Positions 8,963-57,724 of a DNA stretch of 64,000 nt are shown in pieces (the first letter of the stretch is position 1; every line of letters starts with the position of its first letter). Under the pieces are notes generated by a model. The model did not search any database and had not been told where the DNA came from. It was given only the letters and a program-made list of their open reading frames with translations. Origin of the DNA: Amphiscolops sp. MND2022 (taxonomy: Eukaryota). The stretch is from positions 46,378,001 through 46,442,000 of the forward strand of contig OZ076409.1 in assembly GCA_964187785.1 (NCBI GenBank). The letters are read 5' to 3'. A program made the translations under genes and the position numbers.

Positions 8963-10818
8963 TTTTAGCTTGTGTACGTTATGATGTAAGGTTGATTCCT
9001 TGAAAAATGATTGTCAATAACTGAAAATTGTTTCCAATGAAAAGACTAAGAAAACACAACAGCTAGAAAGTTGTTTAAAAATAGCTCACAAAAACCGGCC
9101 TTCATTTTGATTTCTTCAAAACTTCTACAAGTTTTTTCAATAATGTTTCACTTTCAATCTCTTCTCACACGATGTTTAACCTCTCGAACTTATTCAACTC
9201 TGCTTTTCATTTCTTTTGTTCGATCTTTCAAGACGTTTTCTCTGCACCAAAACATTCTTTCCGATCATGGGAGACAAAAAAAAGATCTAGAAAAAACGAT
9301 CGCCCTGATTAAACAGAGGGATAAGTGGTTGAGAAGCAGACGCGTCGCAACGTAATGAGACTGCTATTGAAAATAGTAGTACCTGTGAAAGTGTTAGTTT
9401 AGTTACGTATAAAGAAGCATGTCTAAAAGAACGTACACAAAATGAGAATGAGATTCAAAGGCCGATTTCATGGTAGAACAAAGAAAAAATGTCCGAGCTA
9501 AAAAAAAAGAAATGAATGAGAAGCTAGGTAAAATGGTGCAGTAAATGAAGAATAGCCAAAGCGCGCAATCAGTTGCAATTATAAAGGATTACGAACAAAA
9601 TACATCACTAATAGAAACGCTCGATTGTGCGACCAACAGGGACCGTGTATTAAACGCATCTAATATAGACAATCAAGATAATAAAATGCAAATTGTCCCT
9701 CACAGTCCCTTTGAATTAAGTGAGCTTAAAGCACCCGTTCAGCGTGTGAACAACTGAAATTGAAAGTTCGACTCAAACGACCCTGTAATTATAAACGAGG
9801 ACCGATCATAAAGGGTTATGACACTTGGTAAATAAATAATAAACAAAAAACATTTTCTTTAAATTTTACCAATAGATCTATGAAGGACGTTTCTAAATAT
9901 AAAAATGCAGATACCGGAATATGTTTCCTCGTATAACGATTTCCAGCTTTCAAGAATCTGTTATTTCCTAGAAGTAGTTGCACCGTTCATCACGAAACTT
10001 CCTGAAGTGCTAGAGATTTTTATTTTCGGCATTATTTGTTGCGGCGCTGTTCGATGCAAGTTTCTAACAAAAAGGAAACACCTGGACGTGAAAAAAAACA
10101 AGTATTTAACCCGAGCTTTCGCCATTTTTTGGACATTTTCAAAAATAACACCAAACGTTGGTGGAATGCACTTCCTGCACATGTTCTGATAAAACGTCCA
10201 TACACCCATCAAACCGTCCTGGTATTTTGAACTTTCTGTATTTAATATTCGTTGTGTCATTTATGAACAATAGTTACCATTTTGCCGTGAATACCCTGTG
10301 TGTCCAAAAACGAAAGATGGCTCAAATTATTCAGAAGGTACTCTTTTTAATGTCGGCCCTTTTTGTTCAAGTTCAGTTTGAAAATGTGTAGTTTTTGACT
10401 CTGTTCACTGACAGTTCGCGCTTTAGTTTTTTTTCGAAAATATTTCCTGATAAAACCCAAAAGGTACTTTAAGTCCGGTTTTTTATGAAAGTCTGAGAAG
10501 TTTTTTGTAAAACGTTTCATTTGTGATTTGAAGTAGTTTGCGCTGTATGGCTCCTTAGCGGGGCGCCAACCTACGTTGTTCCCGGCTTGTTTTTTAAGGC
10601 CTCACTTCCCCACTCTTTGAAATTACATTCATACGATTGTATGATTTTGGAATAAAAACGGTTTTCGGTGGAGTTTTTGGCTGCCTTGAAGTTTGTTTTT
10701 ATTGCTTTCAAGGAATCACGGAGTTGTTTTGTTTTGAAAAAAATGGAGGTACTATTGTACACAGCCATCAAACACATTAAATTTATTCAATCTGAAATTT
10801 GAATTTGCGAGAAATAAA

Positions 10819-11584
10819 TGTAACGGCAAGCTGTTATCGGTCGCTTAACACGTTAACAGAGGTGGAGGAACCTGCAGGAATGGGTGAATCGCTCGGGACA
10901 GGCGCCCATCGCCACAGATCCATTTTGCCTCCAGGGGTGAAATACGTCCGCGGGTGCTTCGACGAATACTGTCCAACCGGTCCTAGTCTTTGATTGCTAA
11001 TAGTAACGGGCATCTTTCTGGCTCTCTAAAGACCACCGCTTAACTAGCATATAAAAACAATGCCAAGAATAAGGTAAATTTCCAGTTCCAGGGTGACATG
11101 TGAATAAGATCTAAAATTGGGGAATAAGGTCTAAACTAGCGCTAGCGCTACTGAATACAGCCAAAATCACTGAAAATACATGAAAACAGGCACGAATATG
11201 GCAAACCACACAGCTAAAAAGCTGGGGCGCAGGGGCTCCAAGCACCAAACAAGGATCTTTAGGCGGAAAGACTCATTTTTACGGTTTCCGCTACATAGGG
11301 TAGCATAATGCTGAAAATCGATAAAACCGGTGTTAGCACCTCAAAAAGAGTCTTTTTTCGGATGTTCTCGCCGTCTCTGGCTTCTGTCATGGCGGCGCGC
11401 CCGTGTTTTTGCTCGTTCTTGCTCTTTGTTGTCGAAGTACCTGCCAATTTCGTGGAAACAGCGAAAAGAGCAATCACATGCTCAGTGCCACGTCACACAT
11501 CGGATTAGAATTTTTGACAAAATTTCTGAACATGTCAAAGTTGCAAAATCGGTTGATATTGCTGTACCAGAGCTTGCCGTTACA
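10819..11584 (-). repeat. 3' LTR (766 bp)
   Basis: Perfect 14-bp terminal inverted repeat TGTAACGGCAAGCT/AGCTTGCCGTTACA. By eye it differs from the other LTR by ~6 substitutions and indels of 7 and 3 bp. Confidence 0.97.
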
Positions 11585-11593
11585 TCACTCCCC
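11585..11593 (-). promoter_or_regulatory. Polypurine tract (short)
   Basis: Minus strand reads GGGGAGTGA immediately before the TG of the 3' LTR. Confidence 0.75.
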
Positions 11594-12692
11594 GGGCTTT
11601 ATGCATGACGTCCCTTTCATGCGGAGAGGCTCGCATTGAATACATCGCCACATCATGAGTGCAATCCACGGGGGTCTCAAGCTGGTGATGTTGCAACGGT
11701 CCAGTGGCACTGTCATCTCTTCCTGATTGGGCAACCATGAGGTCTTGCCTCTTGCCATCCAGAGAACCTGCATCGTCCACAAACTGTTGAAACAGAGCTA
11801 GCTCGAGAGCTAGAAAACCAGTACTCAAAAATGCACCTTGAAATTGATCAAATCCAAGATTCCATACATCAATCAAAAAAGCACCACTTTTTTAGCACGA
11901 GTTTTCTGCAAAAGTCTCAATAGGATCCTGCTAGCACTTTGGTTTTTGGACGTCTAAAATTTCTTTTCACGGAGCGCTCACGCTCCAAAGCGCACGTGGT
12001 TTTCAGCAAAAACATCTTTTCCACGGCAATAAAACTTCAGTTTGCAGCACAGTTAAAAGTTCTTTTCGCTAAAGCTTCTTTTCAGCAGTAAAACCACTGT
12101 TTAAAAGGAAGACAAACTGTTTCTTTGATACTTTTTTTTGACAGTTCGGCTTGGTTTGGGCAACACGCACTGATGTGCAGCTCCATACCTGTATAGAGTT
12201 CAGTAGCATCTGTCAAGGAGCGCATCAGAAGCAAACTACGAACTGCTCGTAAGAGTAAGCACTGGAGTAAAGCAGACAAAGGTAGATCAAATCTTGATAT
12301 ATGCAGATCAGGAGCGCGCGCGCTCCTTATTTTTCCGGATATCACGTTGGAATCTGGAGGAAATTTCAGGAAATCTTGAAAAAAATAGCACCTTTCGGGC
12401 GTAGCAATACATGTAGTGTTTTTGGGTTATTTTTTGCACTGGGGCTCCCCGGGCTTTAATTGTTGAGCACCTTCATTAAAATAAAGATAGCAATGACTAA
12501 CAAAAAATGCGAAGAAAATGCAAGAGGATGGATTGGGCGTTGAAGACACCCCTTCCCTCTTGAAAAGAAGTGGAGTGTGGTTCTGGCAATGGATTTCAAC
12601 GCATGCTACCAGAAAGTAACAAGCACCGCGTATCAAGCATGAGATATCAGGATAGCAAATAGAAAATTAACCAAAAAAAATTTACGTTGAAG

Positions 12693-13232
12693 CTAAGTGA
12701 TGCCAGGAAATTGTTCAATACTGGCAATGGAGACATAGACGCGATCATGCAGAAATACAGTGATATCAGTTCCTGCAAAAACGTCCATAACACTATGATA
12801 AAAATTGTCCAAACTGCGAAGTGGGCGTTCAGGGTCCACTATGGGGAAATGAATATCAGGGGTTTCGTTGGACAATAATGAAGCTTTCAAGTGCTCCAAG
12901 CATAAGACAAAGTCATCGGTGATTGGTGGTGAACGCTGGGAGGGGCGTGTTATCATTAGGTGAATAACTTGATTATCCATAAAGGACAATGAGGATGGGA
13001 TAGTTAGGACTTCACCAACTGTTGGGCGAAGTTGGAATATTTTGTCGCTGCCACACTCGCGAAGAATGTAGCGCAAGGCAGCAGAATTGGTATTAAGGTC
13101 TGCAGGGCAGCAAACTGCTACGTGGCCCTGCACCTGCAAGAAATCAATCAGTTTGATCGTAAACAATGTAGTCGACCGAATTTGGTCGTAGGGCACCAGG
13201 AAACACAATCTGACGTCCGGGACCTTTTTCAT
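12693..13232 (-). pseudogene. Degenerate TARG1/Poa1p-like macrodomain; frameshifted C-terminal part of Pol
   Basis: VAVCCPADL / VGEVLTIP / IHLMITRP / CLEHLK / IHFP / DVFAGTDITVFL are collinear with LAHCVSEDL / VGKVAILP / IYYLVTKK / SLVEMR / ISMP / EVFLHTDIDITIY of the host ORF at 55553. Removing one AATC copy at 13142-13149 fuses it to Pol. Confidence 0.75.
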
Positions 13233-16200
13233 CAGCTGGGTCTATATGGTTCTGTCCACGAATAGCAGATAGATCCTGCCATACGGACCTCGACAGATAC
13301 TGATTGTCCACATTTGCTGTTGACCATGAATCCAGGGTACCAAGTGCAGTGTGGATCGTTACAGGCTCGGTGAAGGAATGGGTCCAACCATCCAAAAAGC
13401 GGATACGAGGGAAGCTGGCGAACAAAGTGATAATCAGCTCTAGCCACCATCGGAACCGTAGTTTTCCACGATAAAGATCAACGATGTGGAAGCACAAAAT
13501 CAGTTCCTCAGTGACAACAGTCCGCAAACTCTCTAGACAGCTCCGCAAGCTGTCAGGCTGGACCAAAGAGTGAGCATGTGGGGCAGTTACAAGCAACCAC
13601 CAATATTGGGCTGGGCGATACACTTCACCAGGCTGACAGGTGATGCCGTATTTGTCAGATAGGAGGTCAGCGGTGATACAGCGGACCATTTGGATGGGTT
13701 CCCTCTCATAATTGAAAGGTACAAATACAATGTTAGGAGTGACAGGAGGCACTGTGACGGCAAGTGTGAATTCCAATCCGCGGAGATCGCTTGTCCACTC
13801 TTTGAAGCGAGGACAAGGTTCCTCAGCAATCTTGGATTTAGATAATTCTTCCAGCACGACGTCTACAGGGAGGATACGTTCTCGTTCTAGACCGCTGTAT
13901 GTCTTCTCTGCGCGGATGACAACGCGACTGACAAGAAGCTTACCATTGTGGATAAAAGGTTGAGGCTTTGGATCCACCGGAGTTTTCACAGGTCCAAGTG
14001 CGATAGTGGGCGATTTGTTCAGAGCCATAACACAAGTGCAATCGCGGAACCCACAGGTTCCACATCGATATCGAGGTACTCGATTCCGGCGTAAGCCATA
14101 GTGTGGGTTAACCTGCGTTGCGCCTTGGTCAACATCGGATGTAAGCTGCGCGGTGGGCGCATCAGAGTCAGAATCGGATGTAATTGATGGCTGTGTGTCA
14201 TTTTCACGAGCTGTTTGCCGTGAAGAATTAGTGTGTCCTCGTGGCCTCCGAGGAGGTCGTCCTCGAGGACGTCCTCTGCGACTGGGAGTCCTTCGAGCGC
14301 GCACGCTCACGTTCTGCGACCGGGAATTTGTTGCTCGTGTCGAACAACGAGATAGAGCAGCTCGCGATCTGCCACTGCCACGCGTGCTAGGGACATTGTT
14401 CCGAGCAGTTGGCTCGTTGGTGTTGGATAACTCGGTGTCACGGGTTTCAGTGTTTTGGAGGTTGGAGGTACCATTCGGCAATTGAGGAATACTAATAGGC
14501 ACATCCGTCAATGTAGGATTTGTCAATAGAGGAGCAGATGTACCCGCTAGTGATACACCGGCTTCTCCAGTTGCAACGGGAATATCTTGCGATTGAGGTA
14601 CTCCCGGAATAACTTCAGATTCGGATAAAAATGGAAGCTCGTAGTCATTGGCAGGTTCAAATGACCGAGGTTGTTCATCGAGAGGCATTGAAGCTTCGAA
14701 TAGCGCCGGAGGTTCTGCCTGGGAATGATCTCGGGCATCTGACAGCAAGTCGTCAGAGCGCGAACGCTCTGGGTCGGAACTGGAATAGTCAAATTGCTGA
14801 TAGTGGAGACGACGGCCTCCAACTCGCATTCTAGTACGCAACCTGGTGTCCATCCAGTGGCGTCTCCTTGATGGTAGCGATACATCTGATGCTTCAGAGA
14901 GCGGTTCTTCCTCGCGATATGAGGGTTGTGAGCAGTCATCTCGGATCTCTTCAGCAGAGTGCTCAGGCTCAGGATCCATGACAACGACCACTTCGCCACC
15001 CCCCGAGGGAAGCGCAACAAACTCCGTAGGGCCACCATGATGAGGTTTCAGCCGCTCAAAGTGCACTTTTTGTCCTGAGTCCAGGATGTACACGCGGCCA
15101 TCTTGTAGTACATGGACAACCTTGTGCGGACCACGCCAAGCTCTCATCAACTTCGGTGATCCTTTTTGAGGTACATAGCGGCAGAATACCCAAACGGGGT
15201 CTCCCACATTGTATGCGTTTGCACAAATAGCTCGATCATATTTTAGCTTTTGACGTTGTTGCGCCTGATGCGTGTTTCTACGCACCAAGTCATGAATCTC
15301 TTGCTGGCGAGCAAGAATATGCTCCACATAAGCTCCATGCGATTCAAATGATCTGGCTGCGAACTCCGGATACAGATAGGTGAGAGGAATAGCCTTTTCG
15401 GTCCCTCGGGTCAGCATGTAGGGTGAAAACCCAGTCGTGGCATAGCGCTTTGAGTTATACGCTCCCATGACTTCATCCAAATGCTGGTCCCAATCTCTCA
15501 TGCGACGCGAGCAAAATACCCGCAACAAAGTCAGCAAAGTCCGATTCTGTCGTTCAACCAGGCCTTGGGTGCGCGGATGACCCGCCGTAGAGGTAACGTT
15601 TGTGACCTGAGATGCCCTCATGAACTCATTGGATACCTCTGCAGTCAAGTTGGGGGCATTGTCTGATTGCATCCGCGTAGCCGTGCCGTGTCTGGCAAAC
15701 CATTTCTGCAAAAGCAACCTAGACGTGGTCACGGCATCGTAGTCTTCATGGCTGCAAGGTACAGCCTCCGCAAACTTGGAGAAATGGTCAATTATTACCA
15801 ATATGCCGGTGTTATTGTTATCGGAGGGGCATATTTTTAAATGGTCATACTGGACTAACTCATTGAAATACCCACTTTGGATATTTTTCAAGTGAAATCG
15901 AACGTCACCCGGCCTGTCCCGTACTTGCTGGCACGTGAGGCACTGACTCACGTACTGACCAACACTGCGGCGAATACCTGGCCAGGTGTGGCGTTCTTGG
16001 ATTCGCGAAACCACCTTTGCAATGCCTTGGTGGCCCATGGCATCATGAGCACGAAACAAAATTTCATGCTGGTACAATTGTGGCATTACAATCATGCACG
16101 GACGTTCGTGCAATGGACGTTGCTGAGGTGGATACTTAACACAAAGAATTCCATCTTTGTTTACAAACGAAAGATCTTTTTTCTGCTTGCAATAGTTACG

Positions 16201-18249
16201 TGCGAACGCACGCACGTCTTCAGGAAAAATGTCATGATCCATAGACTCTTGTGCTACCAACTTCTTTATGGCTAGCACATGCACATCACGATTCTGTGCC
16301 AAAAGCAGATCCTTGATGCCATGCACCGTGTTGGCATGTTCATGAAGTTCCGTGTCTATGTCTTTGATGGCTAACGCAGCTTGCCTAACCACCGTTGGAG
16401 CGGAAGCCATGGCTTGCTCCACTGTTTCGTCAAGGGCATATGTCATGCGTGAGGGGATATTTGCCACATGTGTAGGCAGCAAGTAATCTTGCCTAGCCTC
16501 CTCAGTGACGTCAATCCAGTCCTCAGGATAATCTGGGTAGAAGTCTTCGTGAGTTTGCAATATAGGCACTAGTGCCTCAGGTAGAGGAGCGCGCAGCGCC
16601 CTCTCCCTTTTCTCAGCGGCCTGACGGCGCTTACGCCGTCGTGCAACACGACAAACTGCATTTGTGGGGTCTGGTTTAGTGTTCCGCAAGTGAGCGGGCA
16701 ATTGGGGGTGATTGGGTATCACCCGACCATGCAAATCGAACAAAGGTGCAACGGGCAGCTGGTCAAACTCCTCCTGTGAGAGGAAATTCCATTTGTCTGT
16801 CACAGCTGGCAGCTTGAGCTGCTTCTCTCGCCCCCGATAATCATTGGTTCGTTTACTGAGGCCATCGGCATTCCTGTGCTGTGTCTTGGGACGATGCTCC
16901 ACTTTGAAATGGTACTTCTCGAGTGCCATAACCCATCGACCAATCAAGGCCTGATCAGTGGAATACGTTTTGAGCCAAGAGAGAGCTTGATTGTCAACCC
17001 GAAGGATGAACTTTCTGCAGCAGAGATAACTGTGATTCTTCAAGATGAAATAATAGGCTGCGTACATTTCAAGCTTAGGAGCGCCATACTTCGCTTGAGT
17101 GGCATTCAACTTCTTGCTACCATACACAATTGGTCTCAGGCGCCTTTCGCCCGGAGGACCCTGCCACTGATGCAAAATGCCGGAAATTGCAACAGCACTG
17201 GCATCAGTGTCCAGCACAAATTCGCCCTCCGAGTCCGGTTGCGCCAAGGCAGTTGCCTCGATCAAAGCCAATTTGACGGCGTTGAAAGCCTGTTGCTGCT
17301 CATCCCCCCAGGCGAAAGTCGCGCCCAGGCCGGTAATAGCATGCAAGGGGGCCACAAGCTTGGCGTGCCAAGGAATAAACTCTCGATAATAGTTGGCAAA
17401 GCCCAAAAAGCTTCGCATCTCCGTTTTGTTCCTCGGTACTTCCCAATCGCGTAGTTTTGCCACTGCTTTAGGATCAGGTTTGATACCTTCGGCAGAGACC
17501 ACACGTCCCAGGTACTTGATTTCCGACTTCATAAAGTCGCACTTAGCGACTCTCATTTTGAAGCCAGCTTCGCGCAGACATTCAAATACCTCGCGTAAGC
17601 GTACCATGTGGTCCTCGACTGTCTCGGTAGCAATGACGATGTCGTCAATGTACGCCATCACCATGCTTCCTTCCCGGTTAACAATTTTCCGTAGCGCTCG
17701 CGCTATGGCTCGCTGGAAAGTAGCTGAAGCGTTACACATCCCAAAGGGCATACGTCTCCATTCAAACAAACCCAGCTCGCAAGCAAAGGCCGTTTTCTGC
17801 CTATCTGCTTTGCGCACTGGTATCTGCCAGAAAGCCCAGGCCGAATCAAAACTGGTGTAAATCTTGGCCTTACCCAAGCGTGAAAGGCTTTCATCGAAGC
17901 GTGGCAGGGGATACGCGTCCTTTATTGTGACAGCGTTGAGGGGGCGAAAGTCGCAGCAGAATCGCAACTCCCCATTTTTCTTTTTTACCATCACAATCCC
18001 ACTCGCCCAAGGTGATAGCGAAGGTTGGATCATGCCCGAAGCCAGGAGATTGCGTACCTCTTGATTGGCACGCTCCGCCTTGTCAGGCGACATTCTTCTC
18101 GCGCCTTCACTGTGCGGTATAGCCCCAGGCTCCAACTCAACAGGATGCTTGGCTATTGTGCAGCGACCAATGTCTGCTTTGTGCTTCATGAATAGGTCAT
18201 CAAATTCCGTAAGGATGTTGTTCAGCGAGTCGCGGGCAGTCTTCCCCAC
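13144..18249 (-). CDS. pol: Gypsy Pol: RT, RNase H, integrase (HHCC, DDE, GPY/F-like) and a long C-terminal extension
   Basis: RT MPFG and YIDD; RNase H TDAS...LE...VDN...NADGLS; IN AHDAMGH...CLTCQ, YDHL/SDNA/VERQN; KLMRAWRGPH. The listed GTG start is probably an artefact of the break at 18245-18272. Confidence 0.95.
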   Translation of the reverse strand: MGKTARDSLNNILTEFDDLFMKHKADIGRCTIAKHPVELEPGAIPHSEGARRMSPDKAERANQEVRNLLASGMIQPSLSPWASGIVMVKKKNGELRFCCDFRPLNAVTIKDAYPLPRFDESLSRLGKAKIYTSFDSAWAFWQIPVRKADRQKTAFACELGLFEWRRMPFGMCNASATFQRAIARALRKIVNREGSMVMAYIDDIVIATETVEDHMVRLREVFECLREAGFKMRVAKCDFMKSEIKYLGRVVSAEGIKPDPKAVAKLRDWEVPRNKTEMRSFLGFANYYREFIPWHAKLVAPLHAITGLGATFAWGDEQQQAFNAVKLALIEATALAQPDSEGEFVLDTDASAVAISGILHQWQGPPGERRLRPIVYGSKKLNATQAKYGAPKLEMYAAYYFILKNHSYLCCRKFILRVDNQALSWLKTYSTDQALIGRWVMALEKYHFKVEHRPKTQHRNADGLSKRTNDYRGREKQLKLPAVTDKWNFLSQEEFDQLPVAPLFDLHGRVIPNHPQLPAHLRNTKPDPTNAVCRVARRRKRRQAAEKRERALRAPLPEALVPILQTHEDFYPDYPEDWIDVTEEARQDYLLPTHVANIPSRMTYALDETVEQAMASAPTVVRQAALAIKDIDTELHEHANTVHGIKDLLLAQNRDVHVLAIKKLVAQESMDHDIFPEDVRAFARNYCKQKKDLSFVNKDGILCVKYPPQQRPLHERPCMIVMPQLYQHEILFRAHDAMGHQGIAKVVSRIQERHTWPGIRRSVGQYVSQCLTCQQVRDRPGDVRFHLKNIQSGYFNELVQYDHLKICPSDNNNTGILVIIDHFSKFAEAVPCSHEDYDAVTTSRLLLQKWFARHGTATRMQSDNAPNLTAEVSNEFMRASQVTNVTSTAGHPRTQGLVERQNRTLLTLLRVFCSRRMRDWDQHLDEVMGAYNSKRYATTGFSPYMLTRGTEKAIPLTYLYPEFAARSFESHGAYVEHILARQQEIHDLVRRNTHQAQQRQKLKYDRAICANAYNVGDPVWVFCRYVPQKGSPKLMRAWRGPHKVVHVLQDGRVYILDSGQKVHFERLKPHHGGPTEFVALPSGGGEVVVVMDPEPEHSAEEIRDDCSQPSYREEEPLSEASDVSLPSRRRHWMDTRLRTRMRVGGRRLHYQQFDYSSSDPERSRSDDLLSDARDHSQAEPPALFEASMPLDEQPRSFEPANDYELPFLSESEVIPGVPQSQDIPVATGEAGVSLAGTSAPLLTNPTLTDVPISIPQLPNGTSNLQNTETRDTELSNTNEPTARNNVPSTRGSGRSRAALSRCSTRATNSRSQNVSVRARRTPSRRGRPRGRPPRRPRGHTNSSRQTARENDTQPSITSDSDSDAPTAQLTSDVDQGATQVNPHYGLRRNRVPRYRCGTCGFRDCTCVMALNKSPTIALGPVKTPVDPKPQPFIHNGKLLVSRVVIRAEKTYSGLERERILPVDVVLEELSKSKIAEEPCPRFKEWTSDLRGLEFTLAVTVPPVTPNIVFVPFNYEREPIQMVRCITADLLSDKYGITCQPGEVYRPAQYWWLLVTAPHAHSLVQPDSLRSCLESLRTVVTEELILCFHIVDLYRGKLRFRWWLELIITLFASFPRIRFLDGWTHSFTEPVTIHTALGTLDSWSTANVDNQYLSRSVWQDLSAIRGQNHIDPADEKGPGRQIVFPGALRPNSVDYIVYDQTD

Positions 18250-18269: not shown

Positions 18270-21200
18270 CTAAGATTCGGGTCCAGGAATAGGGGCCAAG
18301 AGATCAGGGTCAGTGCGCTTTCTGATCTCGCGCTCTGACAACCCCTCCTCCGATGGGTCTGTAGAGGAGAGAAACTCGAACTCCGACGACGACGAACATT
18401 TTGAATGCGAGTTCAGGTCCATTTCAGAATAGACCCTGTTGACGAACTCATTTGAGGAGTCCGATTTTTCGTCACTCTCGCCTTTGTGCGCTAGCGCACA
18501 TTGGGGGACTGCATGGTAGACTAGGCGTACTGGCGCAGCAGTACCAAGCATGGTGCCGCACTTCACTTTCTGGGCATTGCTTGTCAGATTGCCAACAGAG
18601 ACATAGAACGAACCTGTCTCTCCAACAGTGGCTAGAGTGTCTTCCACGAATATAGTGTTCTTCAGCAATCGGTTCGGTGTTGCAAAGTTGATCACCACAT
18701 TTCTGAAAGCGAAAGCTTCTAAGTCCGAAGTGACCACCTTGGCACGTAGAACAGCACGCTCGAATGGCTGTAGCACCACGTCTTGATCCAAAACTACTGT
18801 GCTGGATAAAGTTTCATCGCTCGTCTGGGCGTGTGCGTGATGCCACATGGGCTTAGCCGGGGCTCGCACCACTATTTTCATGGCGGTCAGATCTACGAGC
18901 ACGTTATATGCTCGCAGAAAATTCCTACCCAGCAAGAAATCTTCCAAGCCATGTGCGTCATCAACGACCACGAAATTTGTTTCGAGTTCATATCCACCAA
19001 GTTGGAAGCGCACACGCTCCGCTATTCCAAACGTTTTCATCGTCTTCCCATTAGCAGCATACAAGTCGATTCGATAAGGTTGTAGCGCTACACCTGTCCG
19101 CAAGGCTACACGGTTGAAGGCTGAGAAACTCATGATTGATACGCCTGACCCCGTGTCGACCATTCCTCTCAGTGGAATAGGGTTGGCATCTGGCACTGCA
19201 AAAGATACTACGAGCAACGCACGCTCATCAATGCGGGCCTCACCCGTGGGCTCCTGCTTGCTGATGCTGTAGCAGCGGAGTTCATGTGGCCCTAGACACA
19301 CTCCCTGAGGGAACACATCTACTACCACGCTAGCATCAAATTTCATGTCCACGCCATCTATGTTAGCGTGCACCGGAACAGGCGAGTATGCCGTGCATGT
19401 GCTAGCTTCGTCTTCAGTGTACCATTCCTCTGGCAGTGGCAAGGAGATCCTCTTGACAGCCGGGTTGCTGGCCAACTCCAACTTCAATTTTTCCAAGGTC
19501 AAATATGGGCGTATTTGTTGCTCCGAGGCCAGCACTAGGTGTACAGTCAATAAAGTCCGGCCACTAGGGTCAAACGTTGTGGACTCCAAACTTGTCTGCA
19601 CCTGCTTTGTGCCACAGGTGACTGTCAATGGAGCATTTACAGTGGCTTGGTCAGCTGGACGTAGCATTAATACCCTGCCAGAGGCAGTAGACAGGGTTTG
19701 CGTTGCATCCGTTTTCTTCTTGTCTTCAGCCCTAGGGCTGGAAGTTTCTGACTGGATTGATAATGTTGGACAACCTGGAGACACCTCAGTTGTGCACGAT
19801 TTCACTGGGACAGCAGGTGCTGGAACCGCTGCTGCAGCACCTTGCTGGGGCTCACTATGTGGGTCAAGAATATGCTCCGGGCGATGCACCACCAGCTTGC
19901 GTCTCGCGCAAGCACTCTGCAAGCAGCGTGCGGATTGCTCTAAGGTTGCGGTCTGTCTGTATTCAGGGGTTGTGTGTACTGACGCAGCCGGCATCGGCAA
20001 TCGCGCCGACCGGCGTGCAATGGGTGGCAGCGATTCATACTGCTGAGCCACAGGTGACCCCGGCACTTGGTCGCTCTGTAGGTACTGATAAGGTACAGTC
20101 TCGGTGCTTCCTGGGTCACGAGGCTGTTGTTGGTGACGACTCCTTTGGAGTTCCTGTACAGTGAACCGAAGTGATTCCACGGTAGGTGGGTCGGCTAGAT
20201 ACGCCTCAGTCGCAAACACTACCGTCAGTTCTCGTTGCAACACGGGATCGCTGACCCCGTCCATGAACCGATGCAAGATTTCATAGCGTCGGGTAGTGAT
20301 AGGCTCATCAGGAAAACCCTGACTCCTCAGACCCTCTAATGCATCTAAATACTGCATCAGGCCCTCTTTCTCAAGCTGATTTCGCAACCTGAAAGCCTGC
20401 CTCACTGGCCAGCGGCTATTCCCAGTCCCAAATCTGCTGGAGAGCAAGGTCGTCACCTTCTCGTGAGAATCCCGTTCGGACTCCGGTTTGTTGATTATAA
20501 AACTCCGAGCTTCATCACCTAAGTGATCGATTATCGCCCAGGCCTTGTCGACAGGTGAAGCATTGGAATAAACTGGCTCCAAATACCGTTTCATCACGAG
20601 CAACCACTCTTCAACAGTCCAGTCTTTTGAACCTCTGTATAAGGTTGGTCGAACAGCGATTTGATCACGATTGGCAATCAGGGGAGCCAACTCTTTAGCT
20701 ATAGTTTTGGATATCGCCTCCGTGAATTTCAACTGTTCGGGAGATATCAATTCATCTTTTGGGTCATCAGTACCATGATTGTCCTCGAGCAACCCGCCTC
20801 GATCCATAGGCGACGTGCGAGCCATGCCCATGGTTGCGTTGTTCGAAGATATCGAGGCCGGTTCATCGATTGGTTGTGCTGCGCTGGTGCCCTCTCCCCC
20901 CTTCAAAAGGAAGCAGTGGCGTTGGAAATTTTCCGAAGGTTTCATTCCAGCGTTAGGTGTAGCAGAATGTGGCTCAAAGGAGTCTTTCAGCAAACTCGGT
21001 AGCAACTTCGTAGTTGATATTAGGGACTTGGTTCCAGGGAAGTGAGAGTTGCTTAAAGAATCCTGCGATAAGGAAATGGAGGATGAGATAGATATTCGTT
21101 CATTCTTCGTATCACTCGAGTAGAAGTTGCGCTCGCGCAACCCATTATCACCGGCGTGATATTCAGGCAAAGTGTCAGCAATACCCATGGTTGTATTGTC

Positions 21201-21440
21201 CAAAGATATTGGGTCCGATGACGTCGTCGATCGTTCATGTTCGTCTACCATTTGGGATTCATTTTGAGGTTGAAAATCATGAACATCCATTGGTTGTGCT
21301 GCACGGACACTCCTATTCCCTTGAAAAAAGGAATGGAGGGGGCGGGAGAATCTCCCATGTTTAATTTTAGCTTTAGAGGTTCCGAACTGCATCACTAGAA
21401 CAACCTGTGTACCCAAGTTCAGTGTCAGGGTCAAAGTCAA
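18270..21440 (-). CDS. gag: Gypsy Gag plus aspartic protease plus dUTPase-like region
   Basis: Capsid-like region (VEEWLLVMKRYL...HLGDEAR...RFG...RFMDGVSD) and retropepsin VDTGSGVS...FLLGRNFL (Asp at 19157). No clear CCHC knuckle. True start uncertain; first ATG ~21392. Confidence 0.9.
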   Translation of the reverse strand: MTLTLTLNLGTQVVLVMQFGTSKAKIKHGRFSRPLHSFFQGNRSVRAAQPMDVHDFQPQNESQMVDEHERSTTSSDPISLDNTTMGIADTLPEYHAGDNGLRERNFYSSDTKNERISISSSISLSQDSLSNSHFPGTKSLISTTKLLPSLLKDSFEPHSATPNAGMKPSENFQRHCFLLKGGEGTSAAQPIDEPASISSNNATMGMARTSPMDRGGLLEDNHGTDDPKDELISPEQLKFTEAISKTIAKELAPLIANRDQIAVRPTLYRGSKDWTVEEWLLVMKRYLEPVYSNASPVDKAWAIIDHLGDEARSFIINKPESERDSHEKVTTLLSSRFGTGNSRWPVRQAFRLRNQLEKEGLMQYLDALEGLRSQGFPDEPITTRRYEILHRFMDGVSDPVLQRELTVVFATEAYLADPPTVESLRFTVQELQRSRHQQQPRDPGSTETVPYQYLQSDQVPGSPVAQQYESLPPIARRSARLPMPAASVHTTPEYRQTATLEQSARCLQSACARRKLVVHRPEHILDPHSEPQQGAAAAVPAPAVPVKSCTTEVSPGCPTLSIQSETSSPRAEDKKKTDATQTLSTASGRVLMLRPADQATVNAPLTVTCGTKQVQTSLESTTFDPSGRTLLTVHLVLASEQQIRPYLTLEKLKLELASNPAVKRISLPLPEEWYTEDEASTCTAYSPVPVHANIDGVDMKFDASVVVDVFPQGVCLGPHELRCYSISKQEPTGEARIDERALLVVSFAVPDANPIPLRGMVDTGSGVSIMSFSAFNRVALRTGVALQPYRIDLYAANGKTMKTFGIAERVRFQLGGYELETNFVVVDDAHGLEDFLLGRNFLRAYNVLVDLTAMKIVVRAPAKPMWHHAHAQTSDETLSSTVVLDQDVVLQPFERAVLRAKVVTSDLEAFAFRNVVINFATPNRLLKNTIFVEDTLATVGETGSFYVSVGNLTSNAQKVKCGTMLGTAAPVRLVYHAVPQCALAHKGESDEKSDSSNEFVNRVYSEMDLNSHSKCSSSSEFEFLSSTDPSEEGLSEREIRKRTDPDLLAPIPGPES

Positions 21441-22199
21441 GAGAATTACTCAACACTTTACAGACTGCTCAGTGGACTAGAAATTTTTGCTCTAGAGCAA
21501 ATTGCTGCAGCCAAGTTGGATAGTGCGCACCAAACAGACAGTCGAGCGGTTTGTCGACCTCTCAACCTCAATGGATTTGGATGTGTTGTGATTACCCAAA
21601 AAAGTTCTCTGCAAATTTGGCGTGATATTCGGCTTTGATGCTACTCGATACAGCGGAATAACACCAAAATGAGGCACCAGAGTGTTCAAAAAGGTGTCAC
21701 ACTCGGGCAATCCGGTCAAACTTTTCGTCACTAGGAAGTTGCTCCTCCCAAAATCTTGTGATTTTGGCTAAGTCGGAACACTCAGGGTCTCTTTTGGATA
21801 TCGAAAACCCTGCTCAAGGTAACTCCTAGCGATTTTTGTTTGGAAAATGTAGTCCAGAGTGCGTCGCAGGCACTTAAAACTGCTGACTTGATTTGTTCAG
21901 AATCAAATTTCGAAGTCCCAGAAGAGTCTAAAATTTATGACCCTTGCCGGCAATTTTTTTGAACCGTGGGATTTGCCTCGTTTGCACCCAGGAAAGTCTA
22001 CTGGACCCCTTCCGTTGGAAAATGAAGGCTTTTTGGGTCTGCCTCCTGTACAGCGGAAGTATTGAAGATTTACAATGATAGATTTTCTGGTGTTTTTTGA
22101 ATTTTGTTCAAGACGTATGTCTGAACAGAGTCAAATTCAGTTTTATCGATCGTACTGGGTACAAAATGACACAGCACGTTTCGTCAGCCACACAAGTCA

Positions 22200-24390
22200 G
22201 AAAAATATCCTACCGTAGCTGATAATTGCCTCCAGCTCCAATCTAGAGCCTTTTTCAACGATTTTTGGATTTTTCAACTTTAATCGGAAATTACTCAAGT
22301 GGCTTGTACAAGTGCTGGAAACGTGGTATTGGGCTCAAAATTGGTCATGCGATCACACGTATAGCCAGCTACACTACAGTAACAACCAATGAGAATTCAG
22401 ACCACAGGGCATGATTTAGATCTGATACTGACGTTCCGTATCACCGTGTCTCGATTGACACGATTTTTCACATGCAATCAAAGACTCTCGTCCACAGTGC
22501 TGAGCTCTCGAGCTCACTTTTTCAGCAACGGTGCATCAAATGACACTAATAAGAATAGTCCAGGGCAATGTAATCCCAACTTCCCAATAAGGTGCGCCGA
22601 TAGTTCCAAAAAATGATCCAATTCGTTACAATACACAGGATATCACAACTTCAAGTAACAAAATGCTATGATCCAGCAAGGCAGCCACTCGATACTGATC
22701 AAATTTTACACGCACAGCAATGAACAAACTACTGGAAGTTCAAACTAGGGATTTCTACAGGTTTCCAACACGTAGAAATGATTTTTCTCTCACTTTCCCA
22801 GTTTTCGTCTCGGTGAGACCTCTAACTGACACAATGAATATGCACGTCCGAGAAGCGTCGAAACAAGTTCCAAGGGTCGCAGTGTGCCGAAACCTATACA
22901 GCACTTCCAGATTGATGCACTGACCCAAAAAGTGAGTCCAGAATCGGGGTATTAGGATCCAGTCACAGGTCAGAGGTTTTTCAGATGTTTTTTGGGTTTT
23001 TCAGCTTCACTTGAAAAAAACTCCAGAGGCTAGCGCTAACGCTAGAAACGCAGGATCGGCTTCAAAATCAACCACACAGTCCCACGTAAGTTGAGGTACA
23101 AGGGAAGAATAGCTGATTTGTGCTGAGATGACTAGGTGAAGTTTCAACACAGTACAGACGTTCGGTATCACCGTGTTCCAATATGCAGTGTTCTTCACGT
23201 GTCAACTCATATTCCGGCAAACAGCAAAGAGCTCTCAAGCTCGTTTTTTCGGCAACAATACGATAAACTTGCACTGGTTACGATAGTGGGCAGCAATTTG
23301 GCCCCACTCTTTGAATAAGGTGTTCAGGCAATCCCACAAGACTTCGTAGAATTCGCCTTCTTGCGCACCTTCTTGTGCAGTGTGACTGTGTTTTAGTCAA
23401 TTTCTCAACAGATACAGTACCATTTGACACCAATCTTGGCAGACGCTGTCAGTAGGCACCAATCACGCTGTTAGAGTAGTGAAATAGGCGGTGGTAGGCT
23501 TGCAGGGGGTCTTCTCAAGGATTTGGCCCTCTGCTCGTCTCGGTGAGGACTTAAGAAAATTGATGTTTTTTCAACGTCCAAGATTTTTCAAAACACGTTC
23601 TAAGACTCGTAGGCTGTTCAAATTTGCACAGCGGTTTTCCACAAGCACACTGGGCTAGAAAATTAACCTGGTTTAGGGCAAAAAGTCTCCGGTCACTCAC
23701 AGGAAGAATTTCAGAGAATTTTTGGATTTTCCAAAAATCGCACAACAACTCTCCAGAGGCTCGTGTGTGCACTGGAAGCGCCGTATCCAGCCCAAAACTG
23801 ACCAGCAGATCTTAGGTACACGAAGGTTTACGAAAATGAACACAGAATTGAGCTGCGCCCCTTCTACACAGTTTCACCTAGGTATAGACGTGCGGTACCA
23901 CAATGTACCGAACTACACTGTTTTTCACGTCTTTTTCAAGATTGCGGTCCACTGGAACGAGCTAGCAAGCTCAAATTCTCTGCAGCAACGTAGGAACTAG
24001 CACAGGTTACGATGGTGGGCTGCAATATAGCCCCACCCGTCGGCTAAGGTGCCCGGGTTTCTCGGAAAAATTAGGAAAAAACTGCCTTTTTGCGCACCTT
24101 TTTGGAAGCCACGTTTTTCCTATTTTCTCAACAAGTATCACACAGATCGGCACCAAACTTGGTAGTCTATGCCAGTGGGCACCTACAATGCCACTTATAT
24201 GGTCGAATTGAAGCGCGAGCGCTTATTTGAGGTTTCGACCCACTATGTACGTTGTACACGAAAAAACACTGTTTTTGACGACTTTTTTCACAAATTGACC
24301 AAGAGGATCACCTCAGAAGGTGATACGGCGGGCAAAATGGGACCAACGTGTTGCCCCACTATCCGTAGCACTGGGATAAACCCTCAATTG
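22200..24390. repeat. Three degenerate ~728-bp tandem units in the retrotransposon 5' leader
   Basis: Collinear anchors at 727-730 bp spacing: GACGT.CGGTA/CCGTA (22430, 23157, 23887), TTTGG.TTTT (22267, 22994, 23724), AAGGTG (22589, 23317, 24046), GGTTACGAT.GTGGGC (23276, 24005). Confidence 0.8.
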
Positions 24391-25934
24391 GTCGTGCCCG
24401 TTATGTATAAGGAACTGACAGTCCTGCAGTTTTGGATTTTTTCGGTCCTCTGACGCTTCTCTGAAGTCGAAACGTCAGAGAGCTTTTCTCAACTTTGGCG
24501 ACCGATACGCTCACCAAATTTTCGGCACTAACGTTAATTTTGGTGGTAGTTACGAAAATACAACCACTTTTTGGCTAGGGTTCAGGAATCGATGACCCGA
24601 CCCTAGCTCAGAGACAGTCCGGTTTTGTGGAAAATTGATCAATTTCAGTGCGTTTTTCCACTTTTCTCAGCACTGAATGGGAGTTTTTACACGCGGTTTT
24701 CACCACCACGCGTTATTTTTGCTATAAAAACAGAAAATGAGAGCGCGCGTGCTCCCAGGTCTCGAAAACACTGAGTGCCCCAGAGGTTTTAATGATGCAC
24801 TCTGGCACTCCTGAAACTGGCCAAAAATCAAGGTTTTTCGACCTGTTCTCACCAAGAAAACGTTACAAAATCTCTTAAATCCTATTTTCGGTACTGTGGA
24901 GTGTGCCCCAAACTAATAGCAGCACGGACGAGGCAATTACATTACAATCCAGCACTCTCCCAGTGCCATTTAATAGTGGTTTTTTGCCAATTTCTCCAAA
25001 AACCGGGTTTTTTCATGCAAAATGTGTCTCAAAAAGGTCTCCAACGGCCTTTCTGGTTGTCGTTACATTATGTAGCAAAACCCTCAAGGTTTTGGGCTGC
25101 TTTCTATTCATTTTTGCAACTGCTGTGGCTGATACTTCGAGCGCTCGCGCTCGTACCAAGAAAAGTACTCAAAAATGCCAAAAATCACGTTTTTGCGACT
25201 TTTGCACTAAAAATCGCACTTTTTTCACTGAAAACAGGTGCAAAAGCACACACTCAGTTGCAACAGGGTAAAACTAGCATGCACAATTGATTCCCTGTCA
25301 AAAAATACACAATCTAAAAATTTTTTCATACCATACTCCAAAAAACCGATTCTTGCGGAATGAGGGGTGGTACCTTCGCCGTCTTTTTTCTCAACAACCA
25401 GACCAGCCAGGGAGAAACGGTTTGGACCGTCGGCAACGTCAGTGTTTGTTCTAGCTTTCCACCAAAAACCATGCTTCTAGCACGTCTCCACGGGAAATGG
25501 GAAAGGAGAGTCGGGAACACTCGTTTCAGCTCATCTCAACACTGATAGGCTATCGGTCAGATGGAACATGGCGCATCCATCAACTGAATACCTCGTACAT
25601 AGCCAAAAACGCTGAAATGAGCTGTAAAACACCTGTTACAACATGCGTAACGGCTTTCTAGCGGTTCGCTAAGCCATTACAAAGGTACCCGCTGATGGGA
25701 ACGTGCAATTTTAGACGATACCTGTCAACAAATACCTGTTATCAAAACATACCAAAGGTTATCGGAAAAATCCCCCGAAAGACTGGAAAAACACCAAAAT
25801 ACAACGTCATAACATCTAAAAAATTTGGAAAAACTCTGGGTAAACGTCTCTTTCCAGAGTCCAATCGTTCTTGGCGTCCAATACCAGGGGGTCGGAAATT
25901 TCAAAACCATAATATAGGGCAGTAATCGGAAGCG

Positions 25935-25952
25935 ATCCCTCTGTGGTCGCCA
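25935..25952 (-). promoter_or_regulatory. Primer-binding site, tRNA-Arg(TCG)-like
   Basis: Minus strand TGGCGACCACAGAGGGAT resembles the complement of the animal tRNA-Arg(TCG) 3' end (TGGCGACCACGAAGGGAC, from memory). It lies 15 nt from the LTR. Confidence 0.7.
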
Positions 25953-25967: not shown

Positions 25968-26743
25968 TGTAACGGCAAGCTGTTATCGGTCGCTTAACAC
26001 GTTAACAGAGGTGGAGGAACCTGCAGGAATGGGTGAATCGCTCGGGACAGGCGCCCATCGCCACAGATCCATTTTGCCTCCAGGGGTGAAATACGTCCCG
26101 GGGCCGCGGGTGCTTCGACGAATACTGTCCAACCGGTCCTAGTCTTTGATTGCTAATAGTAACGGGCATCTTTCTGGCTTTCTAAAGACCACCGCTTAAC
26201 CTGCATATAAAAAAAACAATGCCAAGAATAAGGTAAATTTCCAGTTCCAGGGTGACATGTGAATAAGATCTAAAATTGGGGAATAAGGTCTAAACTAGCG
26301 CTAGCGCTACTGAATACAGCCAAAATCACTGAAAATACATGAAAACAGGCACGAATATGGCAAACCACACAGCTAAAAAGCTGGGGCGCAGGGGCTCCAA
26401 GCACCAAACAAGGATCTTTAGGCGGAAAGACTCATTTTTACGGTTTCCGCTACATAGGGTAGCATAATGCAAAAAATCGATAAAACCGGTGTTAGCACCT
26501 CAAAAAGAGTCTTTTTTCGGATGTTCTCGCCGTCTCTGGCTTCTGTCATGGCGGCGCGCCCGTGTTTTTGCTCGTTCTTGCTCTTTGTTGTCGAAGTACC
26601 TGCCAATTTCGTGGAAACAGCGAAAAGAGCAATCACATGCTCAGTGCCACGTCACACATCGGATTAGAATTTTTGACAAAATTTCTGAACATGTCAAAGT
26701 TGCAAAATTGGTTGATATTGCTGTACCAGAGCTTGCCGTTACA
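25968..26743 (-). repeat. 5' LTR (776 bp)
   Basis: Direct repeat of 10819-11584 with the same 14-bp terminal inverted repeats; adjacent to the PBS. Confidence 0.97.
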
Positions 26744-28684
26744 AAAACTCGACTTATATGAGTTGTGACTCGGATTATAGATAGGTCTTACTAGGGATAT
26801 CTAGCGTCCTGCTTTCGCCACTCAGCTATTCAGTCGACACTGATGAGTGGAATCATCCGAGTTTTTTCTTTTGGAACTGTCGTTTCCAAGCGTTTTCCTG
26901 ATTACAATCAATTGTGAAAAAATTATTCCAATGAATTCTGCTCACACTCAACATATGAAAAACAAGAAAAATATCAGCAAGCTGTTTCCGTCCGTTTTCA
27001 GCAGCGAGACTGAAGTTCGTAATCCTGTGCTGTAGTTCTGTTTTGGTAACTTTTTTTCCGCCTATATTCCGTATGAGAAAAAGAACAACTTCAACTGCGT
27101 TTTTTTCAACATTTGCCTTTTTCCAATTTTATATCCATAAAATGAATATGCGTTTGTAGAGCTGTTTGAATTTTTGTGGGGAAAACTGTCCCAAAATGTC
27201 CTCGACAAAACCGACAGCATGTTGTCGTTGGTATGAATATCCCCAGAGTGTAACCACAACACAACCAGCTACTTAACATACTGTTGTGCAAAATTGTATC
27301 ACAACTCCCTCAAAAAGTGTCAAACACTGCTATGCTCAAGCATTTAAAAATATGTTGTCGCCATAGTATTTTGGAGCGAAATCTATTAACTGTTTTAAAT
27401 ACCATTTTTATTTCAAGCGGGGCATGTATTTCGGTCGCCGTAGCTTTTGGTTCGTCAGTTTTCAAAACTGATCAAAACGCCAAAGTTGGATGAATTCTCA
27501 GATGTTGGTTTTATTGAGTACTTTGTGAATATAAATGTTGGAGGTTGTGAGTACCAAAACACAGTTAAAAGTATCAAATTGTATGAAGTTTTCCGAAGTT
27601 GTCTAAACTTTTGACCATGTTTCTCGATTCACGTACCGATTGGATTTTAGGAGTCTGATTTAAAGCAATATACGCTGAAGAATGTACGAACAGATTCAAT
27701 TGACAATTCTGTCAAATGTGCAAGTGATCGCAATTTTGGGCAGTTCTTCCAAACACCCTTCTCTTCGCTCATTCCACAAGCTAAATTTAAGGAATGTTTT
27801 GTTTTGCAGTCTAGGTGCTAAATCATAACGAATCCGTTTTTTTCGTCGTTGAATTCTCTTAGAGTACAATTAGAGTAAGGCAAGTTTTTTGAATAAAAAA
27901 ATGTGGTTGAGAGATTATTTGCAAAATAAGTATAACAAGGATGAGTCCTGGATGACATTAGCTGCTCAGTAAAACTTATTTTAGAAATTAACTCTGAGGC
28001 ACAGCGATTTTCATTCAGTGCTTGTAAATAGAATTTATATGCGTATCAACCGATAGTATCTGAAAACTGCTTATTCTATGTCCATCCCGCGGAAATAGGA
28101 AATATCGTTTCTCCTTGATTTTCTTTATGAAAATTGTCGCAGCTTTTGGTTTTCTTTCAGATAGCACATTCCTAAAAGATGAATTTTAAGTTTTTTTTCA
28201 ATCTATGAAATTTACTAATCAAAATTTTCTACAGGAAGAGTTTCTAGCTCTCTCAGACTTTTGAAATAGTCGCCAACGCTTAAAACTGGGCGCCCAATAT
28301 TCTAACATGACTTCCCATAAGGCAGAAAACATAATTATTAGATACCATAAACACTTAAGCTTAAAAAATGCACTTGAAGATTCCTTTTTACGCGTTGCAA
28401 AGCGAACCTATCAGTCAACTGTGATCATCTTAGTTTCTGTAGTTTGTAACTTTTGTTTATCTTAGTCTACTGCCACTTACATCTTGCACTTGTTGTCTTG
28501 AACAATAACAACAAGCATATTTATTACAAACTTGTAAGAATAGCCAGCGGTCCCTTTCCCGGGTCTACATTTCAAAGCGGCTGTTTCACTGGCTCCTACT
28601 CGAGCTTAAAGACCTTCTTGAATGAACAGAGGTTGCATAAATCACAAACATCAGTTGAGTTTGATGATATTCAGTCGAGAGTGT

Positions 28685-38600: not shown

Positions 38601-38942
38601 TGAAACTCAAGCTTGAAACTGGCCTTAGTTTCAGCCAATCAAATCGCGAATAGCATAAGTTCCCACCAACTACTAGCAGATAATCTAAGCACTCCGAGTC
38701 TGCAGTTGAGCAGTGTTAATTCTATAAATTGTTTATCCTCCATTCATTCTAACTTTCTTCCACACTCGGATCCAAGTTCCAAAATTGAAACCAAACTGCA
38801 GGACCTTTCATTTTCAACATAAATTCTGAAATAATTAAATTAATTCAACAGCTTCTGAAATCTCAAAAAACTGCTCGAAATTAAAACTGAGGATTTCACT
38901 TACAAATCGGAAGCATTTTATTGGCACTAATAGAGGTCCAGA

Positions 38943-56488: not shown

Positions 56489-57724
56489 CTTAGTCAATGT
56501 TTATGGCATGCTCAAGTTGCTTCCGCCGTGGAGTAATTGAGTCAGTGTAACAAGTTCTAGTACGTCATAGCAAACTGAAGAGTGCAGGAAGATTCATTTT
56601 TTATCTTGAACACATTTTTATCCTGAACTACTGATGTAATGCCGTCAAATCTCCGCACTAATGGCATTTGTCGAAAACGTTTGTGAAAAAGTAATATGTT
56701 GCAATGAATGAATTTTCACAAAAATGAATTGCAATTATACCCTTTCTTAAAACATGGAACGATGAGAAAAATTATGTTTTTTTTTTCAAAAACCTTGTAA
56801 AACTAAAATGGTAGATAAGATTGAGAGCTACCGGAAGAGTACTCCTAAACTGGTATTCTTTGTTTTATAAACCAGAAATTTCACCAGAATATCGCATATG
56901 GAGGCAGTGTATCAATGAGCTAAATGTCAAATTTCAGTTTCTGTGAAATGCGTTGAGGCATTCGGTATTATTCAGTCAGGGACACAACTTTTGTCGGTAA
57001 GTGTACTTTTCACAGGCCTTGAAACTTTTGCAGTTGCCATCAAAATTGTCGAAAATGGTGGCAATAATCAATTGCTTTTGGTACCTTTTTGTCAGAACTT
57101 TTCTTACGAAAATGCACTATGCACTACCTCGAAAACTAGATATCAAAGAAATGTTTTTTCTCACTTTTTGCGATAATTTTTTCATGAAATAGTTGACCTT
57201 ATTTTTTGCATTTAGAGCTACAGGAGGAGTATTCTCAAAATAACACTTAGTTTTGAAACATGAGATTTGATCAAAACATCGCAATTCTGTATCAATAGGG
57301 CAGTTACGAAGTTTCCATAACCACGAAATGAATTAGATAGGGATAAAAATTTCAATACATTTTTGAGAATTCTTTTGGTACGGAGGGGAAACGATTTTAA
57401 GCAGATGGACTTGATAAGGGACAGAAGTTTGTTTCTAAGTGTTACACAAGTCAGTTGGATTGTACTAATCAACGAATTAACTATGTTGTTTCAATTGAAT
57501 TAAGGAATTCAGATTGACAAAAGGGTATTACAACTAAACTTTTCAAGACCGGTCCGTAACCGCAGCGTATAGAAAAAATGGAAAGATTTTTGCCGCGATT
57601 TTCGCTAGTCATAACTTTCGCTTTCATCTCTTGACGTTGGAAGTACATTTATACATTTACCGACAAAAGTTCTGTCCCTGGCTGAATAAGTTCAACTTCT
57701 TCAAAACGTTTATATAATACATTT

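Follow-up and report, generated by a model that had tools for sequence, protein, structure and literature searches.

TARG1, an eraser of ADP-ribose, relies on the catalytic pair Lys84 and Asp125. In PMC5928194, the TARG1 mutants G43E, I44E and G123E are described as having lost both ADP-ribose binding and hydrolysis, and G43E and G123E as still binding RNA; SCO6735 is reported to be active without Lys84 and Asp125 (PMC9411070). Fusions of chromodomains and PHD domains to retrotransposons are known (10.1101/2021.11.30.470311), long terminal repeat (LTR) retrotransposons other than Troyka make target-site duplications of 4–6 bp (Kojima 2025, PMC12440569), duplications of 3 bp are mentioned in PMC12905397 and PMC10741241 for DNA transposons only, and PARP13/ZAP restricts retrotransposons according to PMC4982230, whose available text does not mention element-borne macrodomains. 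Here we describe an LTR retrotransposon of 15.9 kb on the minus strand of a 64,000-nucleotide stretch of Amphiscolops sp. MND2022 DNA (the window; assembly GCA_964187785.1, contig OZ076409.1, positions 46,378,001 to 46,442,000), in which the integrase is followed by a module with two degenerate macrodomains of the TARG1 type, D1 and D2. This integrase tail is conserved and apparently undescribed, and three families that carry it leave 3-bp duplications.

The preliminary description of this DNA placed two TARG1-like macrodomains behind the integrase, and the motifs it quoted lie on the minus strand where it had put them (Table 1), with a frame break near 13141–13150. Structure searches with predicted models returned TARG1 first for both segments. 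For D2, a model built from the C-terminal 463 residues of one natural copy (predicted local distance difference test score, pLDDT, 84.5; predicted template modelling score, pTM, 0.56, the relative placement of the domains being unsure) matched TARG1 with a Foldseek E of 4e-10 and a VIA Z of 16.7 (root-mean-square deviation, rmsd, 4.1 over 142 aligned residues). D1, modelled together with its flanking residues (pLDDT 88.8, pTM 0.83), gave a Foldseek E of 1.6e-5 and a Z of 8.6 (rmsd 2.6, 114 residues), with other macrodomains next; a Z of 8.6 is close to the noise level of the tool, and Foldseek and profile comparison concur with the TARG1 fold. In pairwise comparison the intact TARG1-like open reading frame (ORF) at window 55553–56500 matches D2 with E 7e-5 and gives no signal with D1 (best E 5.2). 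When a profile built on 116 homologues was run against PDB, TARG1 chains were all that it found below E 0.02, each of them on D2. Profile–profile comparison scored 53% (E 1e-4) for D1 with TARG1-like domains, 78% (E 2e-5) for D1 with D2 and 95% for D2 with intact domains, reversed-sequence controls scoring 0.1–0.5%. D1, with no pairwise signal and a middling Z, is the weaker of the two assignments, and on these models and profiles both domains fold as TARG1-type macrodomains. The earlier motif list, correct as to positions, missed a further conserved subdomain of ~110 residues that encloses D1 and that is covered by no fold match in the model of D1 with its flanks. Neither Pfam nor NCBIfam has a family for the module, and the ESM Atlas gave only leads below 0.9, among them a Macro cluster (0.86); none of its leads concerned the D1 region.

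We number pocket residues as in TARG1, by way of the profile alignment of D2 to TARG1, which is ungapped through the Lys84 strand, the next helix and loop 2. Residue counts across the family bear out the loss of Lys84 and Asp125 in both domains. The Lys84 site is Ala (44/72) or Ser (24/72) in D1 and Arg (60/68) in D2, where Lys persists in 2/68; the Asp125 site of D2 is Pro or Ser. The MGAGIA loop, said to be lost in both, is deleted in D1 (the GAGIA stretch of loop 1 is gone, as is Asp20), but D2 keeps the length of the loop and has lost its glycines. In D2, Gly43 has become Ala (61/74), and positions Gly121–Leu124 of loop 2, the diphosphate loop, read Asp-Pro-Glu-Arg (46/53, 43/51, 41/50 and 43/48, respectively), so that the fixed change at 123 is of the G123E type. 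Loop 2 of D1 has the pattern D-x-Y-R-G, with Gly121 replaced by Asp in 65/73, Gly123 by Tyr in 55/74 and Arg at 124 in 61/74. Polar residues are fixed at former active-site positions, and this holds out to 31% identity.

The window element belongs to a young and abundant family (A), with 112 scored matches at 97–100% among 4438 candidates. Open gag-pol frames of ~3050 amino acids occur in several copies. Four copies were read over their full length, piece by piece; in each of them gag-pol forms a single long ORF, and none has an ORF resembling an envelope gene. The module is present in at least four families of this genome, the sister families being B (ORF of 3193 amino acids), C and D (3116 amino acids); the module of family D is 43% identical to that of family A, and it is kept in families 43–57% identical. 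A tree of reverse transcriptase (RT) and RNase H with 26 rows, none of them a named reference RT, places families A–D together in a single clade (100/100); the relatives closest to it in the sample have an intact domain between RNase H and integrase. Among database proteins, 45 of 637–2000 amino acids match the module, most at 41–67% identity and nine with integrase or RT families; dozens combine the same integrase with the module, at or near the C-terminus, and a scan of cluster representatives gave 328 matches. Three database fragments resemble the copies of this genome at only 35–45%, and the module is therefore probably present in other genomes as well. Family A copies also occur in tandem, five in a row at ~14.1-kb spacing, and there are 1.9-kb tandem duplications of the module region (G000:C1:34054065-34111528, C5:37401393-37413604). 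Family B has a second ORF after pol, of at least 1195 amino acids (L161:416-4000), that is absent from family A; it has no match in Pfam, NCBIfam or PDB, and part of it resembles an SGNH esterase by eye only.

D1 and D2 lie in one open frame in 25 of the 29 other copies compared, the remaining 4 having a stop, and the break between D1 and D2 in the window copy recurs in none of the 29; among the 112 best-scoring copies, a biased sample, 97 have the module open. We estimated the ratio of non-synonymous to synonymous differences (pN/pS) by Nei–Gojobori counts with one copy per subfamily in two close subfamily pairs. D1 gave 0.07, D2 0.11 and 0.08, integrase 0.07 and 0.06, and the spacer 0.23–0.24, which places the module, like the integrase, under strong purifying selection in close pairs. 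The expectation that the module is retained and selected in intact copies is upheld, and neither neutral evolution nor absence from intact family members, the outcomes named beforehand as checks, was seen. Between families A and B, synonymous sites are saturated and identity is 92% in integrase, 71% in D1 and 52% in D2. Two motifs in front of D1 accompany the module in all families examined. In the CxxCGxRxCxC motif each Cys is kept in 33–35 of 35–36 rows, and the GRP core of the AT-hook-like motif is present in all 8 in-frame spacers examined, two others read out of frame being left out of the count, with Pfam AT_hook matching weakly (8/116 members, best E 0.26).

D1 and D2 share Cys99, Leu103, Asp121 and Arg124, at which the prevailing residues in 106 intact domains are Ser (93), Met (91), Gly and Leu (99), respectively. 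As the intact set was picked by motif, only the unselected columns 99, 103 and 124 count as shared changes, plus the Asp121 common to D1 and D2. The residues agree with the earlier proposal of a duplication and fit an order of decay first and duplication second. Direct capture from the host, also proposed, is doubtful: many intact TARG1 domains in this genome are borne by retroelements, and a tree from a 62-column short block joins D1 with D2 (100) and nests them among element-borne RNase H–integrase macrodomains (83), with weak support, long branches and possible long-branch attraction. Two neighbouring TARG1-like ORFs in the window are likely of host origin. That at 55553–56500 keeps Lys and GCGLD, is single-copy (the next match is at 52%) and has a further N-terminal part of 170 residues; the other, at 60955–61476 (minus strand), also with intact Lys and GCGLD, comprises only the C-terminal half of the domain and a Gly-rich tail. 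A tandem host donor was considered, the N-terminal half of the ORF at 55553 being macro-like by eye, and rejected at a profile score of 0.1–0.5%.

With window 55553–56500 as query, gypsy-like elements of this genome were found to carry intact TARG1-like domains at four positions, in at least 150 matches of 956 candidates. The domain stands after the protease, at the end of an 834-residue gag-protease ORF (L068), between protease and RT (L071, L073, L080), between RNase H and integrase (L067, L072, L078), or after the integrase (L069, L070). All seven aligned element-borne domains keep Lys, GCG and Asp, and the intact domains fall in three separate RT lineages. The gag-protease-macrodomain ORF at L068:1719-4220 is followed by no pol ORF of 300 amino acids or more within 3.8 kb, and this family may be non-autonomous while keeping an intact eraser. 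In two further intact-macrodomain families (L177:272-2695 and L187:2719-4500) the downstream ORF looks envelope-like by eye, with a basic cleavage-type motif and then a hydrophobic stretch, and has no meaningful Pfam match. TARG1-like domains also occur in other kinds of protein (records P0283, P0284, P0285, P0361 and others). By eye, P0284 resembles a non-LTR retroelement protein and P0283 an RNA-virus polyprotein, and P0285, with PF01660, is RNA-virus-like as well; in many records a DNA ligase III-type protein bears the domain as a C-terminal fusion.

The module-bearing families also share an integration footprint that the preliminary description had not noticed. Exact 3-bp direct repeats stand at the LTR ends of 14/16 family A insertions (12/14 parsed, with 2 more pairs read), 6/8 family B insertions (a ninth, with one end damaged, is not counted) and 6/6 family D insertions (4/10 lay outside the fetched windows), which makes 26 of 30 for the three families together; repeats of 4–7 bp were found in none of the 30. 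Mismatched flank pairs gave a 3-bp match in 8/462. In a control family, whose macrodomain is intact, the repeats are of 4 bp in 5/5 insertions, the LTR start having been set by hand at T(A/G)TAGC for three of the five, consistent with the other two. In families A, B and D the LTRs measure 717–776 bp and end in TG..CA (TGTAAC..GTTACA). The only target preference seen is a symmetric bias, with A three bases before (15/18) and T three bases after (13/18) the duplication. A 5-bp duplication masked by the terminal T and A of the LTR was rejected, as the flanking bases do not fit. So was a shared target repeat or tRNA-gene target: 11 flank pairs contain no tRNA, and the single shared match came from a mis-parsed row.

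The primer-binding site is similarly unusual in its position. It is an 18-nt complement of tRNA-Arg(TCG), the genes of which we located in the genome, and it begins 15 nt after the LTR in 15/15 family A and 8/9 family B copies. Both family D copies (2/2) have a similar TGG-started site 16 nt away, and in the control family the spacer is 1 nt in 5/5. Standard reverse transcription copies this spacer, usually of about 2 nt, onto one end of the complementary DNA (cDNA), from which it must be removed. The tRNA-Arg(TCG) genes form a tandem array with ~174-bp spacing (G000:C9:57537654-57568193, L232), with 372 pattern matches genome-wide.

We favour the reading, with a probability of about 0.48, that the pair is an ADP-ribose-blind binding module that stays on the integrase and assists in handling cDNA ends or in capturing the target. 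One retroelement-borne TARG1 domain would first have lost its ADP-ribose pocket and then been duplicated, and the pair would have stayed attached to the integrase, neither binding nor removing ADP-ribose. It would serve as a binding surface during integration, for the cDNA ends, for target DNA or chromatin, or for some host protein present there. With the primer site so distant, one cDNA end would come out ~15 bp too long and need trimming, the 3-bp stagger would imply an unusual intasome geometry, and the module would be the obvious candidate accessory for both. The AT-hook-like and Cys motifs suggest contact with nucleic acid. The link between module and 3-bp footprint we infer from one clade.

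Several points weigh against this reading. Module, footprint and long spacer all fall in one clade and so represent one event rather than a correlation, and we found no module-less member of the clade for comparison. The length of the target duplication is usually attributed to the integrase core. The domains, with median net charges of −2 and −1, are not basic overall, which lends no support to direct DNA binding. Between families the module changes far faster than the integrase, and the ~310-residue spacer could be open to protease cutting, which would free the module from the integrase. The absence of catalytic residues would not by itself prove inactivity, because SCO6735 works without Lys84 and Asp125, and D2 has retained the adenine-site Asp20 in 58/70. 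A bolder version would make this an undescribed LTR-retrotransposon lineage with its own integration chemistry (15–16 bp trimming of one cDNA end and a 3-bp stagger) enabled by the duplicated, pocket-blocked TARG1 module, a dead ADP-ribose eraser turned intasome part out of a wider habit, likewise undescribed, among gypsy-like elements of carrying active erasers; taken as a whole we find this doubtful.

Alternatively, the pair may be an ADP-ribose-blind accessory acting away from integration, in RNA binding in the particle, in localisation or in binding a host restriction protein, the footprint and the spacer then being unrelated properties of the integrase core. A long cleavable-looking spacer does precede the module, its faster change between families is as expected of a host-facing protein, and TARG1 with a dead pocket goes to nucleoli as well as binding RNA (PMC5928194). 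The intact macrodomains at four polyprotein positions in other elements mean that position need not imply a role with the integrase. This alternative has to contend with a constraint in close pairs equal to that of the integrase and with an AT-hook-like motif and a Cys motif that travel with the module, and we consider it possible, if somewhat unlikely.

The polar residues fixed at the old active site (Arg at Lys84, D-P-E-R and a His in D2; D-x-Y-R-G-K in D1) could instead belong to a new enzyme, or to a binder of another small ligand, which one or both domains would have become by using Arg, Asp, Glu, His and Cys around the old pocket; SCO6735 indicates that the class can switch mechanism (PMC9411070). 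Such a change of function is unlikely in our judgement, since the new side chains stand where glycines had left space for the diphosphate, and Asp121 with Arg124 could be a mere structural salt bridge.

The preliminary description had offered an ADP-ribose reader guiding the element to ADP-ribosylated chromatin, or a decoy against PARP-based defence. The TARG1 fold, the Asp20 of D2 and the intact TARG1 domains of other lineages, by which ADP-ribose matters to retroelements here, would suit either role. The pocket, which is a stronger argument than the catalytic pair as far as residue patterns go, speaks against both: its glycines have been swapped family-wide for bulky or acidic residues (Glu or Tyr for Gly123, Asp for Gly121), Gly43 has become Ala, D1 has neither loop 1 nor Asp20, and TARG1 itself loses binding through equivalent changes (PMC5928194). 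ADP-ribose binding by the D1–D2 pair is therefore improbable. That the module is a decaying passenger without function is scarcely tenable, for despite the lost catalytic residues and the broken window copy, pN/pS of 0.07–0.11 with synonymous sites near saturation refutes it; the frames open in most of the best-scoring copies of that biased sample and the retention of the module across diverged families also speak against it.

The order of Pfam matches in the window element (protease, RT, RNase H, H2C2 finger, integrase core) is that of gypsy, and Ty3 Gag-Pol is the best solved relative from RT to integrase (E 1e-99). The 4–6 bp duplication usual for Ty3/gypsy (PMC12440569) is not seen in the 30 insertions of the clade, and as 26 of them have duplications of 3 bp we file it as gypsy-like. 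A GPY/F domain (WRGPH) aligns with the WRGPY domains of related elements (E 3e-9) and has no Pfam match in the window copy; no chromodomain match was found at the integrase C-terminus at E up to 1. Besides the break between D1 and D2, the window copy has one near 18270–18303. An insert of ~260 amino acids between RNase H and integrase (window 16083–16870, minus strand; pol residues 481–740) is conserved, at 37–65% identity across families. A relic macrodomain in this interval was rejected, with profile scores of 0.1–0.2%. The ~4.5-kb leader (21450–25934) has no ORF of 100 amino acids on the element strand. Elsewhere the window holds a forkhead transcription factor exon (38934–40223, plus strand) and a DDE_3 (Tc1-like) transposase ORF (32184–33146, minus strand).

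Table 1 Features of the module-bearing element in window coordinates
Feature	Position	Strand	Details
5' LTR	25968..26743	-	776 bp; TGTAAC...GTTACA; 760/766 aligned bases identical to 3' LTR
3' LTR	10819..11584	-	766 bp
Primer-binding site	25935..25952	-	18 nt complementary to the 3' end of tRNA-Arg(TCG); 15 nt past LTR
3-bp target-site duplication, upstream copy	26744..26746	-	TTT on element strand; inside an A/T run, weak taken alone
3-bp target-site duplication, downstream copy	10816..10818	-	3 bp
Gag-protease section of single gag-pol ORF	18270..21449	-	Split from pol by frame break in window copy
Protease	about 18912-19175	-	Pfam
RT and RNase H	16912..17988	-	YIDD at 17641-17652; Pfam
Integrase	15040..16083	-	H2C2 finger, D-D-E core, GPY/F domain (WRGPH)
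AT-hook-like basic motif, two GRP cores	14236..14280	-	Within low-complexity spacer of ~310 amino acids
CxxCGxRxCxC motif, probable zinc site	14032..14064	-	Conservation; model confidence low at motif
Wrapping beta/alpha subdomain, N-terminal half, packs with D1	13756..13956	-	Co-folded with D1; conserved
Pseudo-macrodomain D1, predicted TARG1 fold	13390..13734	-	Pol frame; structure and profile comparison
Wrapping subdomain, C-terminal half, and linker to D2	13171..13389	-	pN/pS 0.09-0.16, close pairs
Pseudo-macrodomain D2, predicted TARG1 fold	12735..13170	-	Starts at 13170, continues in 12693-13241 frame
Purine-rich tract adjoining 3' LTR	11585..11597	-	Next to the LTR edge

The module would represent a new kind of accessory for retroelement integrases. 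The clade joins Troyka as an LTR lineage with 3-bp duplications, a trait held to be unique to Troyka in a 2025 survey (PMC12440569). Elements of this kind may escape annotation tools built to look for 4–6 bp duplications with the primer site next to the LTR. The same genome contains TARG1 domains that are intact, at four polyprotein positions, and a tandem pair that is dead, which makes it testable whether LTR retrotransposons are restricted by ADP-ribosylation and what use is made of an eraser fold after loss of its pocket. The word 'macro' does not occur in the available text of PMC4120745 or PMC12440569, and the literature searched, which did not extend to Repbase, GyDB and subscription journals, gave no account of this architecture nor of a 3-bp LTR lineage beyond Troyka.

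Of the known systems, TARG1/OARD1 (C6orf130; PDB 4j5q, 4j5r, 2lgr; in the TARG1/ALC1-like macrodomain class with DarG and Poa1p) is the top fold match of both domains, which differ from it in the replacement of Lys84, Asp125 and the pocket glycines, in the missing loop 1 and the wrapping of D1, and in their tandem fusion to an integrase. In chromoviruses such as MAGGY the integrase likewise ends in a fold of host type that was captured, the chromodomain, whose targeting role is known (10.1101/2021.11.30.470311, PMC12440569), whereas the present clade has no chromodomain and a module of ~400 amino acids with two pseudo-macrodomains. Fish endogenous epsilon-like retroviruses (Basta 2009, as cited in PMC4977317), the only retroelements with macrodomains mentioned in the literature consulted, also combine retroelement and macrodomain, but as additional ORFs and not, by the description in the citing paper, as a degenerate pair joined to the integrase of a gypsy-like element. 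Troyka has in common with the clade its 3-bp duplications, a single gag-pol ORF and, compared with family A, the lack of env (PMC12440569). Its described traits set it apart, with CG..CG ends, LTRs of 100–400 bp, no GPF/Y and an internal part of at most 7.7 kb (PMC12440569), against TG..CA ends, LTRs of 717–776 bp, a GPY/F domain and an internal part of ~14 kb here, and on termini, GPY/F and size we reject membership. Within the same genome, the gypsy-like families L067–L082 carry the same class of macrodomain inside gag-pol, in L069 and L070 after the integrase. They differ in having just one domain, in which Lys, GCG and Asp are all kept, and in being only 23–36% identical over RT and RNase H, and the one family tested has 4-bp duplications and a 1-nt primer spacer; the RT lineage nearest to the clade among those sampled is their RNase H–macrodomain–integrase group.

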